Shown: piece by piece, positions 3,653 to 5,433 of the stretch | Position numbering within the stretch: the first letter of the stretch is position 1 | Layout of the letters: every line of letters starts with the position of its first letter | From: a virus | Lineage: Duplodnaviria; Heunggongvirae; Uroviricota; Caudoviricetes | Virus record (IMG/VR): IMGVR_UViG_2526164693_000014 | Length of the DNA: 5,573 nt | Direction: 5' to 3' (one strand) | Made by a program: the position numbers and the translations under genes | Notes under the pieces: generated by a model | Database searches by the model: none | What the model was told of the DNA's origin: nothing | Seen by the model: the letters and a program-made list of their open reading frames with translations, nothing else

Positions 3653-4175
3653 ACGCCCCCCTGGCAGACATTTGTTTATCTGCAAAGTAATATTGGTATT
3701 GCTGACGATACGCGTGCTTGAAAGCAATAGCTTTTTCTATAAGCTCGTCAGTCTCACGTTCCACAACAACTGGATCCGCAAAAAGCAGCCCGGACTCCAC
3801 CACATCGCCATATTCTTTGTTTAACCCGGCGATCATGTACGTAATGCTTTTTCCGTCAGTAATTTCACAATACAATCTGAAATCGCTGATCCGGATAGCC
3901 TCCATAATTGCCGGAATCAGCGCCGTGAATTTGTCACGCTTATCTCTGGTGTCGATAGCTTTCCAGCGTTCGAATATCTTCACCCGGTTAACGCCCAGCG
4001 CCCGTTGATCAACCTCGCCATCATTAAACGTGACGCGTTGAACATCGATGTTCGGGCGTTCTTTCAGAGCCCAGAATGCTTCCGTGATTAATATCGTCGC
4101 CTGCTCCTGTGTCATTCCTGGTCGGCATACCCAGGTATCCAGAGCCTCACAAACCTGTTCAGTGGTGATTTTCAT
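3624..4175 (-). CDS. YdaT-like protein in the cII position (183 aa)
   Basis: Sits between the Cro-like and O-like genes. The segment FTALIPAIMEAIRISDFRLYCEI resembles the Rac-prophage YdaT segment as I recall it; this is from memory and unverified. Overlaps the Cro-like gene by 17 bp and the O-like gene by 29 bp. Confidence 0.65.
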   Translation of the reverse strand: MKITTEQVCEALDTWVCRPGMTQEQATILITEAFWALKERPNIDVQRVTFNDGEVDQRALGVNRVKIFERWKAIDTRDKRDKFTALIPAIMEAIRISDFRLYCEITDGKSITYMIAGLNKEYGDVVESGLLFADPVVVERETDELIEKAIAFKHAYRQQYQYYFADKQMSARGAYEYRCTTMG

Positions 4176-4386
4176 TGTTCAACCGCCCCGCCCGCTTTGC
4201 CTTACGATATTCGTCATAAACTTTGGGGTCGTACTGAAGTTCCCCGCCGGATGCCTCTTGCAGGCGCATCGCGCGACCTTCAGGAACCAGTTCCCCCCAT
4301 GCAGCAACGCTTGCCAGCCTAACTCCTGCGACATTGGCAAGCTTTGTTTTGCTGCCAAAAAACGCTATAGCATCAATTTTCAACAT
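4159..4386 (-). CDS. Cro-like small DNA-binding regulator (YdaS/DicC-like, 75 aa)
   Basis: Divergent from the repressor gene across a 76-bp operator region; the pattern AGVRLASVAAWGELVPEGRAMRLQEASGGELQYDP fits the Cro/YdaS-type fold family; first gene of the leftward operon. Confidence 0.75.
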   Translation of the reverse strand: MLKIDAIAFFGSKTKLANVAGVRLASVAAWGELVPEGRAMRLQEASGGELQYDPKVYDEYRKAKRAGRLNNENHH

Positions 4387-4462
4387 ATCGAAACCCTTAG
4401 ATTTTCCTAAGGAAACTAGATCGTAGAGAAACCTAAGTCAAGAAAAATTAGAATTACCTAAT
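4387..4462. promoter_or_regulatory. Divergent operator/promoter region (OR-like) between the Cro-like and repressor genes
   Basis: Perfect inverted repeat CCTTAG-N6-CTAAGG at 4395..4412 and a third half-site CCTAAG at 4432..4437. Plus strand: -10-like TAGAAT at 4449..4454 only 8 nt before the repressor ATG, with no SD. Minus strand: TTGACT (-35) at 4441..4436 with a weak -10. Confidence 0.6.
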
Positions 4463-4870
4463 ATGAAAAACGAAACCTTCGGTGCTCGCCTCTTATACAG
4501 GCGAAAAAAATTAAAACTGTCTCAGGCCGCATTAGGTAAGCTGGTCAAAGTCGCTCACGTAACAATTTCTCAATGGGAAAGAGATGAAACACAGCCAGCG
4601 GGGAAGAGATTATTCGCACTGAGCCAGGCGCTTCAGTGCTCGCCGACTTGGCTTCTTTTTGGAGATGAAGATAAGCAACCAGGCGAACCGATCCCAGATA
4701 ATCAGCCAGTCAATCTGACAGAAGATCAAAAAGAGTTGCTTCAACTGTTCGACGCACTGCCTGAGTCAGAGCAAAAGGCTCTGTTGTCAGAGATGCGTGC
4801 TCGAGTTGAGAATTTCAACAAACTTTTTGAAGAACTACTCAAAGCTCGCAAAAGAAGCGCAAATAAATAA
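4463..4870 (+). CDS. dicA: Prophage immunity repressor, DicA-type HTH_XRE regulator (135 aa, cI functional analogue, no S24 peptidase domain)
   Basis: N-terminal HTH (LSQAALGKLVKVAHVTISQWERDETQP); CSPTWLLFGDEDKQP and the C-terminal NFNKLFEELLKAR tail match my recollection of E. coli Qin DicA; same length; divergent from a Cro-like gene. The symbol means DicA-family homologue, not necessarily the K-12 locus. Confidence 0.85.
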   Translation: MKNETFGARLLYRRKKLKLSQAALGKLVKVAHVTISQWERDETQPAGKRLFALSQALQCSPTWLLFGDEDKQPGEPIPDNQPVNLTEDQKELLQLFDALPESEQKALLSEMRARVENFNKLFEELLKARKRSANK

Positions 4871-4900
4871 CCCCCCTTTTTTTCGCAACTCTCTGTAATA

Positions 4901-4933
4901 AAAAGCACAAACTTTCAAATACTTGTGTTTTTT
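4901..4933 (+). terminator. Weak candidate intrinsic terminator downstream of the repressor gene
   Basis: Short stem GCACAA/TTGTG with a 12-nt loop followed by a T6 run, flanked upstream by an A-tract. The stem is short and AU-rich, so this is tentative. Confidence 0.3.
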
Positions 4934-4941
4934 ACATCAAG

Positions 4942-4998
4942 AAGCTTAGGTTTTTCTACACAAAAAGCTTGACCATAACTCTTAGGCTATTCTAAATT
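4942..4998 (+). promoter_or_regulatory. pL-like rightward promoter candidate with operator-like half-sites (OL-like)
   Basis: TTGACC at 4969..4974, then a 17-18-nt spacer and CTAAAT/TAAATT at 4992..4998. CTTAGG half-sites at 4945..4950 and 4982..4987, the second inside the spacer; same motif as in the OR-like region. Confidence 0.45.
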
Positions 4999-5133
4999 CT
5001 ACTCATCAAGACACCGCACGGTGTTCTCAGCAAACAGTTCCGCTACCCGGCGTTAAGGGGAAGCAGAGGATTTCTCAGTGGGCGAGTCAAACATCAGAAT
5101 GGAAGGCGTCCAGGGATCAGCAAAGAAACAGCG

Positions 5134-5433
5134 ATGGCGCTTTATATTGATATCAGCGCCATTGCCGGACAGGTAAGAGTTATCAGAGCGGTAACTAAGC
5201 GGTATGCGCCTTTACTTCAGAAAGTCTCTGGTGAGTGCACCGAAGATATTGTCAACGATTTCGTCATCGAACTGCGAGGACTCATCTTCAGTTACAAGGT
5301 GACCACAATTTTTGCAGATGGCTCCCGCGAAACTGTCAGAGCCCTGCGGCTTAAAGGATGTGTCAAAGACTTAGCCACCACATTCTGGGCAAGAAAACTT
5401 GATTGTATTCATAACCAATTTCCTCTCGAGTAA
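5134..5433 (+). CDS. Hypothetical protein (99 aa), first long ORF downstream of the pL-like promoter; coding status uncertain
   Basis: Only ORF of 60 aa or more on either strand in 4871..5505; weak RBS (AAGAAACAGCG); several rare AGA/GGA/CGA codons; no N-like arginine-rich motif; no family recognised. Confidence 0.4.
   Translation: MALYIDISAIAGQVRVIRAVTKRYAPLLQKVSGECTEDIVNDFVIELRGLIFSYKVTTIFADGSRETVRALRLKGCVKDLATTFWARKLDCIHNQFPLE

Follow-up and report, generated by a model that had tools for sequence, protein, structure and literature searches.

A 5,573-nucleotide stretch of virus DNA (Caudoviricetes) is referred to here as the window. Positions 4100-5100 of the window are 100% identical to prophage Sp9 of Escherichia coli O157:H7 Sakai and to many other O157 genomes. 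Sequence related to this segment is present in 2,520 of 5,426 complete E. coli genomes, and about 750 of the 5,426 contain a region that spans 80% or more of the 1-kb query; the element around these positions is very common in E. coli.

Two genes diverge from start codons at 4386 (minus strand) and 4463 (plus strand), leaving a gap of 76 bp. The rightward gene encodes a repressor that is 63% identical to DicA of the K-12 prophage Qin over 131 amino acids and whose residues 2-69 match the N-terminal domain of P22 C2 (phmmer, E = 1e-21; 1adr, 2r1j, and 3jxb). A Pfam search of the 135-residue protein returned HTH_3 as its sole match and no peptidase S24 domain. The leftward gene encodes a Cro-like protein that is 83% identical to K-12 DicC and matches the P22 Cro structure 1rzs at E = 6e-7. 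Among solved structures, the N-terminal domain of P22 C2 and P22 Cro are the nearest to the two proteins. Phage records label the two genes dicA and dicC. Farther leftward lie CII-like/YdaT-like, DnaT-domain O-like, lambda-P-like, and DUF1627 genes. To the right, outside the window, Sp9 carries a DicF-like RNA, which aligns with K-12 dicF and scores 43.5 bits (E = 5e-8), under the Rfam gathering score of 48, together with a DicB homologue whose gene is annotated "cell division inhibition protein." A search of the whole window against Rfam at E ≤ 1 gave no match, and hence no known RNA element that would explain the region. Literature searches found nothing under the locus tag ECs1765 and no description of operators of the CTTAG immunity type, although the locus has been studied genetically.

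We interpret the 76-bp gap, with a probability of about 0.85, as the control region, equivalent to OR, of a lambdoid immunity switch of the DicA/DicC type (Qin-like and related to P22) in prophage Sp9. The first-pass annotation of this DNA had already called the gap OR-like, a description that is borne out mostly through studied homologues: its palindrome occupies the position of the Qin operator Oc, and DicA binds Oc (PMC3441716).

Features of the control region and its surroundings, in window coordinates
Feature	Position	Strand	Remarks
Cro-like gene, DicC-type, ECs_1766	4159..4386	-	75 aa; Pfam P22_Cro, E = 3e-13
Shine-Dalgarno of Cro-like gene	4394..4399	-	TAAGGG, 7 nt before ATG; formed by left half of O1
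O1, primary operator (predicted)	4396-4411; perfect palindrome 4395..4412	.	positional equivalent of Qin Oc
Leftward promoter (dicCp/PR equivalent, predicted)	4413..4441	-	-35 TTGACT 4441-4436, 17-bp spacer, -10 TAGTTT 4418-4413
O2, middle operator (Om equivalent, predicted)	4422-4437	.	CGTAG-AGAAAC-CTAAG, one mismatch to core
O3, repressor-proximal operator (Oa equivalent, predicted)	4447-4462	.	ATTAG-AATTAC-CTAAT
Repressor -10 hexamer (dicAp/PRM equivalent)	4449..4454	+	TAGAAT; no usable -35
Repressor gene, DicA-type, ECs_1765	4463..4870	+	135 aa; HTH_3 domain
Probable intrinsic terminator of repressor gene	4899..4940	+	hairpin plus U-run; inverted repeat I10
O4 (predicted), upstream operator of downstream promoter	4945..4960	.	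CTTAG-GTTTTT-CTACA
Downstream rightward promoter (dicBp/PL equivalent)	4969..4998	+	-35 TTGACC, 18-bp spacer, -10 TAAATT; from promoter scan
O5 (predicted), between downstream -35 and -10	4981..4996	.	CTTAG-GCTATT-CTAAA

Repeated sites in the gap and at the downstream promoter

The recurring unit of the region is a 14-16-bp imperfect palindrome, CTTAG-N6-CTAAG, of which a repeat finder located five copies in the window. The perfect 6-bp inverted repeat that had been noted at 4395..4412 is there, reading CCTTAG (4395-4400), ATTTTC (4401-4406), and CTAAGG (4407-4412), but the conserved half-site is (C)TTAG rather than CCTTAG. The CCTAAG at 4432..4437, previously described as a third half-site, is also present; it does not stand alone, however, and forms the right half of the full site O2. 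The gap thus holds three full 16-bp sites, the completeness of O2 and the existence of O3 having been overlooked, as had the two sites O4 and O5 at the downstream promoter. The K-12 sites Oc, Om, and Oa are said to have been described originally by Bejar et al. in 1986. For their names we follow Yun et al. 2012 (PMC3441716). The centers of O1, O2, and O3 are 26 and 25 bp apart, as compared with 25 and 25 bp in K-12. The leftward -35 and the presumed rightward -35 both overlap O2, and O3, which extends to the repressor ATG, contains the -10 hexamer TAGAAT as well as the point at which the repressor mRNA is predicted to begin.

Taken by itself, the 18-mer is weak evidence, as a match at two or fewer mismatches appears in 24 of 200 shuffles. 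At the same tolerance, CTTAG-N6-CTAAG occurs six times in the 5.6-kb window against about 1.6 expected, and five of the six matches fall in the two non-coding gaps. Local dinucleotide shuffling put three matches into the 76-bp gap about once in 10,000 trials, and a cluster of at least three within 76 bp anywhere in the window appeared in 4 of 10,000 shuffles; as the search pattern was itself taken from this region, both values are post hoc. The comparative evidence is stronger support for the sites than these P-values.

The downstream promoter is homologous to K-12 dicBp (TTGACC-17-TAATCT) and was the only one called by the promoter scan. O4 and O5 flank its -35, and most of the 17 compared loci have an O4-type site located 35-36 bp upstream of O5; a scan allowing at most one mismatch reported no such upstream site in K-12, L003, and L011. 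Between the repressor gene and O4, the hairpin listed as a probable terminator has an RNA fold z-score of -3.0, with 1 of 200 shuffles folding equally well. A hairpin of different sequence appears, by eye only, to occupy the same place in L087. The conserved leader past the downstream promoter yielded no convincing structure: its consensus fold gave only a 4-bp helix in which two pairs were double-changed, in one sequence each.

Conservation and covariation with the repressor

The comparison drew on 93 collected loci, many of them near-identical, and used the 17 intergenic sequences that differ from one another; these come from Escherichia, Citrobacter, Buttiauxella, Enterobacter, Pantoea, Erwinia, Yersinia, and IMG/VR contigs, and only about 8-10 lineages are independent. 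At O1, all 17 loci have TTAG and 15 keep (C/T)TAA as the right half, whereas the N6 spacer varies. O3 behaves in the same way, with TTAG in 17 of 17 loci, CTAA in 16 of 17, and a variable spacer. O2 is kept in all loci with C-type repressors, and its left half is absent from G-type loci. Promoter elements confound the conservation seen at O3 and in the right half of O2, which overlap the rightward -10/+1 and the leftward -35, respectively.

The flanking pair at 4396/4411 of O1 switches symmetrically, being C..G in eight loci and G..C in seven. Repressors whose helix 2 reads LSQAALGK go with CTTAG at O1, O4, and O5, and those with TQRSLAK or TQREAA(R/K), K-12 DicA among them, go with GTTAG at O1 and at every downstream site that the scan located. 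Of the in-silico evidence for binding of the sites by a dimeric repressor, this symmetric change, tied at independent sites to the type of repressor, is the strongest. We make a tentative proposal, to which we would give somewhat worse than even odds: C- and G-type operators, with Ala or Arg as the third residue of helix 2, may represent two heteroimmune DicA specificities that share a single DicC core, TTAG-N6-CTAA, the repressor specificity having diverged and that of Cro having stayed fixed, in combination with autoactivation through relief of competition between back-to-back promoters 55 bp apart and not through lambda-like contact with RNA polymerase.

Work on the K-12 homologue bears on O1. 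Oc, which reads TTGTTAGTCATAACTAACAA, is bound by DicA in vivo, one A-to-C change abolishes binding, and high-copy clones of the region were recovered only with mutations in Oc (PMC3441716). DicA represses dicC, whose start was mapped by 5' RACE, and the dicA promoter, itself without a recognizable consensus, is active only when DicA is present (PMC3441716). The DicA site is annotated at -8 to +12 of K-12 dicCp. Om and Oa, each tested singly in vivo, did not bind DicA (data not shown there; PMC3441716), so that O2 and O3 may not serve the repressor. For DicC, ChIP-seq in K-12 placed the strongest peaks on both sides of dicA and gave the motif TT(A/C/T)G...C(G/A/T)AA (PMC11430063); a search for a corresponding DicA ChIP-seq motif found no usable one. 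Pan et al. 2019 reported that overexpression of DicC lowers dicA and raises dicB, that overexpression of DicA lowers dicB, and that a dicA deletion was unobtainable (PMC6915034). Their primers match the window from 4463, from 4386, and at 4389-4436, and they therefore used exactly this O157 locus.

Promoters, the repressor transcript, and alternative readings

The leftward promoter had been credited with a good -35 and with overlap of the palindrome, and both points hold. TTGACT (AGTCAA at 4436-4441 on the plus strand) is kept across the compared loci, the -10 hexamer TAGTTT abuts the palindrome, and the predicted start falls inside it. The hexamers align with TTGACT and TATCTT of K-12, where the start has been mapped by 5' RACE, and this alignment would put the leftward start at about 4406, within O1. 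O1 would then begin roughly at the -10 edge of the leftward promoter and reach about +12, with O2 covering the spacer and the -35. A consensus promoter scan requiring at least four of six matches per hexamer called neither of the divergent promoters, the leftward one because its -10 matches at only three of six positions and the repressor promoter because it is -35-less.

On the repressor side, the TAGAAT of the first-pass annotation is present, at 4449-4454, 8 nt (TTACCTAA) before the ATG at 4463-4465, and the reported lack of a Shine-Dalgarno sequence is confirmed by the absence of GG, and hence of GGAG, GAGG, or AGGA, anywhere in 4440-4462. The accompanying suggestion of a leaderless mRNA gains support from the K-12 dicA start but needs adjustment, as the leader is probably 2-3 nt in length and not 0 nt like that of lambda cI. 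The predicted start, A4460 or A4461, is the equivalent of the A in the K-12 sequence ACTATG; in K-12, the primary 5' end of dicA lies 3 nt before the AUG by dRNA-seq (Table S3, PMC4681348), with TAGCAT at -12 to -7 of this mapped start. dicA is also among the genes in a RLM-RT-PCR figure of leaderless mRNAs (Fig. S1, PMC4681348) and is counted among the known leaderless genes in a ribosome profiling study (PMC8794815). The arrangement of TAGNAT, 8-9 nt, and ATG, together with the lack of a Shine-Dalgarno sequence, is kept in 17 of 17 loci. Position 3 of the -10 hexamer (TAGAAT or TAGCAT) is an invariant, non-consensus G in the same loci, which suggests a constraint beyond promoter strength.

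The rightward -35 is poor, as had been stated (GAGAAA at 4426-4431, three of six matches, 17 bp upstream), but it lies inside O2 and does not merely adjoin a half-site. In lambda, OR2 adjoins the -35 of PRM. Because the poor -35 of Sp9 is inside O2 and not beside it, activation through a lambda-style contact is doubtful and activation may be indirect. The earlier idea of repressor-activated transcription therefore survives in part: the K-12 dicA promoter is inactive without DicA, whereas the lambda-style contact is in question. According to the indirect explanation, the repressor frees a weak rightward promoter by silencing the strong leftward one that overlaps it and by blocking synthesis of the Cro-like protein. 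The K-12 starts are back to back and 55 bp apart (2377 and 2432 in L002), and therefore the two polymerase footprints must overlap. Relative to the repressor start, O1 is centered at about -57 and O2, on top of the -35 position, at about -31, neither of which is a classical activating position. Moreover, the dicA mutant host of the K-12 assay carried chromosomal dicC in a derepressed state, and DicC induction lowers dicA 48-84-fold (PMC11430063). On the other hand, Yun et al. read their own data as direct activation (PMC3441716), and a class-I-like contact from about -57 is conceivable. On balance, we regard indirect activation as about as likely as direct contact, with a little less than an even chance of being correct.

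Whether all three sites in the gap serve the repressor is a related question. It is possible, though in our judgment unlikely, that O1 alone is bound by the repressor, with O2 and O3 being promoter elements or Cro-only sites and no cooperative three-site array being formed. Such an arrangement would account for the missing left half of O2 in the G-type group, for the overlap of the conserved bases of O3 with the rightward -10/+1 and of the right half of O2 with the leftward -35, and for a DicC ChIP motif that is exactly the shared core. However, the C-type O2 matches nine of the 10 core positions and is kept from Escherichia to Pantoea, the spacing is regular both here and in K-12, and the fixed, non-consensus G of TAGAAT/TAGCAT points to an extra constraint; cooperative binding, furthermore, is invisible when sites are tested alone. 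It is considerably less probable that the repressor mRNA has a long leader without a Shine-Dalgarno sequence and comes from a distant promoter, such as a PRE-like one inside the leftward operon. The CII-like/YdaT-like gene in that operon would fit a PRE-like promoter, and Reg-Seq of the dicA promoter fragment from K-12 detected no polymerase site that was active, but that failure is expected of a promoter needing scarce DicA. The K-12 dicA 5' end 3 nt before the AUG, the inclusion of dicA in the RLM-RT-PCR figure (PMC4681348), and the TAGNAT-to-ATG spacing kept in 17 loci all speak against a long leader. Least probable of all is that the palindrome arose by chance in AT-rich intergenic DNA or acts as an RNA hairpin in the leftward mRNA. 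Although a single 18-mer is not rare at two mismatches and the region is 32% G+C, the clustering of the sites, their conservation around variable spacers, and their symmetric covariation with repressor type run counter to chance; a hairpin was rejected as a candidate, as the predicted start inside the palindrome would leave only one arm transcribed. The comparative data effectively refute this last reading.

Returning to the gap as the control region of a DicA/DicC-type switch, we propose the following mechanism. A dimer of the 135-residue repressor would bind O1 and shut off the leftward Cro-like, CII/YdaT-like, O-like, and P-like genes; of the predicted steps, this block of the leftward operon is the best supported. 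The same repressor, at O5 and O4, would silence the DicF/DicB-like operon. Silencing of the leftward promoter would let RNA polymerase use the weak, -35-less rightward promoter through its -10 hexamer TAGAAT and produce an effectively leaderless repressor mRNA that lacks a Shine-Dalgarno sequence and starts 2-3 nt before the AUG. A repressor without an S24 domain would presumably be inactivated by an antirepressor, as in Qin, whose DicA has no site for RecA cleavage and yields to an antirepressor (PMC10448788). Once the repressor is inactive, the Cro-like protein would be made and would bind the shared TTAG-N6-CTAA cores, and its binding to O3, over the -10/+1 of the repressor promoter, would stop repressor synthesis. 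Sequence features, homologies, conservation, and covariation are what we observed, whereas occupancy of O2 to O5 and both start sites at the Sp9 locus are what we infer.

Comparison with known switches

Overall, the Sp9 region is an ordinary feature of a well-known kind of prophage switch and does not change the current understanding of lambdoid switches. As proposed, the switch would keep prophage Sp9 silent and would also control a DicF/DicB-type operon for a cell-division inhibitor, and its operator sequence would allow cross-repression among co-resident prophages to be predicted.

The logic that Sp9 is predicted to share with lambda comprises a divergent repressor/Cro pair with three operators between the genes, a weak, repressor-dependent promoter, a leaderless mRNA, and a PL-like operator set. 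The operators of the two systems have no sequence homology, however, and the Sp9 repressor has no S24 domain. The middle operator of Sp9 overlaps the -35 of the repressor promoter, and the predicted leader is 2-3 nt as opposed to 0 nt. The PRM and PR starts of lambda are about 80 bp apart, unlike the 55 bp that separate the starts in the K-12 homologue. Leaderless repressor mRNAs of mobile elements include those of lambda cI, racR, dicA, and ymfK, to which Sp9 may be added with a start placed from K-12 only. The racR/ydaS-ydaT region of Rac likewise combines a short non-cleavable repressor and a leaderless mRNA (racR leader of 0 nt, PMC4681348) with a divergent Cro-like gene and a YdaT-family gene, but its repressor family and operators are different.

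The relationship to P22 is closer at the level of the proteins. The recognition helix is near-identical (AHVTISQWER compared with SNVAISQWER in P22 C2), and the partner belongs to the P22_Cro family. P22 C2 has 216 residues, whereas the Sp9 repressor has 135 and no RecA-cleavable C-terminal domain; because the S24 domain is absent and the protein ends at 135 residues, the repressor is outside the SOS-cleavable CI/C2 class, although it works similarly. The operators of P22 share the TTA core and overall geometry, and they differ in the innermost base of the half-site, reading TTAA where Sp9 has TTAG.

The closest relative is Qin of K-12. As judged from sequence, the Sp9 switch belongs to the Qin DicA/DicC type and has all of the features that define this type at the sequence level. 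Both have homologous, divergent repressor and Cro genes, a TTAG-N6-CTAA palindrome over the leftward -10/+1, and three sites about 25 bp apart, as well as a -35-less repressor promoter with its -10 located 8-9 nt from the ATG and no Shine-Dalgarno sequence. Two sites around the -35 of the downstream promoter, which drives the DicF/DicB operon, are shared as well. The differences are of detail. The gap is 76 bp in Sp9 and 83 bp in Qin, with one base fewer between O3 and the ATG in Sp9, and because of the shorter gap the Shine-Dalgarno sequence of the Cro-like gene lies inside O1, unlike that of K-12 dicC (AAGGTG), which is outside Oc. O2 has both half-sites in Sp9, which is not the case in Qin, and Sp9 has kept its replication genes, whereas Qin is decayed. 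Finally, Qin pairs GTTAG-N6-CTAAC with Arg in helix 2 of its repressor, whereas Sp9 pairs CTTAG-N6-CTAAG with Ala. Sp9 and Qin thus form a clean natural pair for a change of specificity in a P22-C2-like helix-turn-helix.

A predicted second operator set downstream of the repressor gene

The repressor gene is followed by a second set of operators. O4 and O5, two CTTAG-N6-CTA(A/C) sites spaced 36 bp from each other, sit on either side of the −35 element (TTGACC) of a rightward promoter, with O5 placed between −35 and −10. This arrangement is found again in most related loci, and the flank base of these sites tracks repressor type across them; an upstream site of the O4 kind was not reported by the site scan in K-12 (Qin prophage) or in loci L003 and L011. 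The region is the equivalent of dicBp of K-12 and of PL.

Between the repressor gene and O4, about 30 nt past the stop codon, is a 12-bp A/U-rich hairpin, AAAAAGCACAA...TTGTGTTTTTT, that ends in a U-run (z = −3.0) and is probably the terminator of the repressor gene. By eye, a hairpin of other sequence appears to occupy the equivalent place in the IMG/VR variant L087.

Conservation of the leader transcribed from the rightward promoter reaches from Escherichia to Pantoea and Citrobacter and comprises the blocks CATCAA, CAC(A/G)GTG, CTCAG, and GTTCCGC; the sequence diverges from K-12 past ~5060. The leader had no Rfam match, and its consensus fold is a 4-bp helix only, with two pairs in which both bases differ, each in a single sequence. 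Our guess is that it may act as a nut- or put-like antitermination signal. Whereas ydfA directly follows dicBp in K-12, the Sp9 prophage of E. coli O157:H7 Sakai carries ECs_5719, which had no Pfam match, in its place. Sp9 also has a DicF-like RNA, whose score of 43.5 bits falls short of the Rfam gathering score (48); it is identical to K-12 dicF over its 5′ two-thirds and has diverged in its 3′ part.

Features of the control region and its surroundings (window positions unless marked L001, the Sakai Sp9 locus)
Feature	Position	Remark
Gene overlap	4159-4175	17 nt
ECs_1766, Cro-like	4159-4386 (−)	L001 5060-5287
CTAAGGG	4394-4400 (−)	left half of O1
Hairpin	4899-4940
O4/O5 region	4945-4998
Leader	5003-5065
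ECs_5719	5134-5433	99-aa ORF; phrog_21318
DicF-like RNA	L001 7516-7565	outside window; upstream of DicB homologue

Variant and mosaic control regions

In L087 and a second IMG/VR variant, L089, the right half of O1, which lies ~75 nt before the repressor start codon, is degenerate, reading CCTACT and CCTACC rather than CCTAAG. The repressor helix-turn-helix is unchanged in both, and the Cro-like N terminus is different (MRKHDA...). This may reflect weaker or shifted repression.

Loci L006-L010 (from E. ruysiae, E. albertii, Buttiauxella, and Citrobacter) have mosaic control regions. Their O1 and downstream operators are G-type (TGTTAG), like those of Qin. Between the start of the right half of O2 and the end of O3, they have almost the same sequence (CCTAAGTCAAGAAAAATTAGAATTACCTAAC) as the C-type (CTTAG) window. 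This combination suggests recombination within the 76-83-bp gap.

The Cro-like gene and its ribosome-binding site

Sakai RefSeq labels ECs_1766 a “phage antirepressor.” We reject that assignment: the protein belongs to the P22_Cro family and is 83% identical to DicC, and it is therefore a Cro analogue. The end of its gene overlaps the start of a CII-like/YdaT-like gene, suggesting translational coupling in the leftward operon.

The CTAAGGG formed by the left half of O1 also supplies the Cro-like gene with its Shine-Dalgarno sequence, at a distance of 7 nt from the ATG. In K-12, by contrast, the Shine-Dalgarno sequence (AAGGTG) lies outside Oc, the equivalent of O1, and the gap exceeds the one here by 7 bp.
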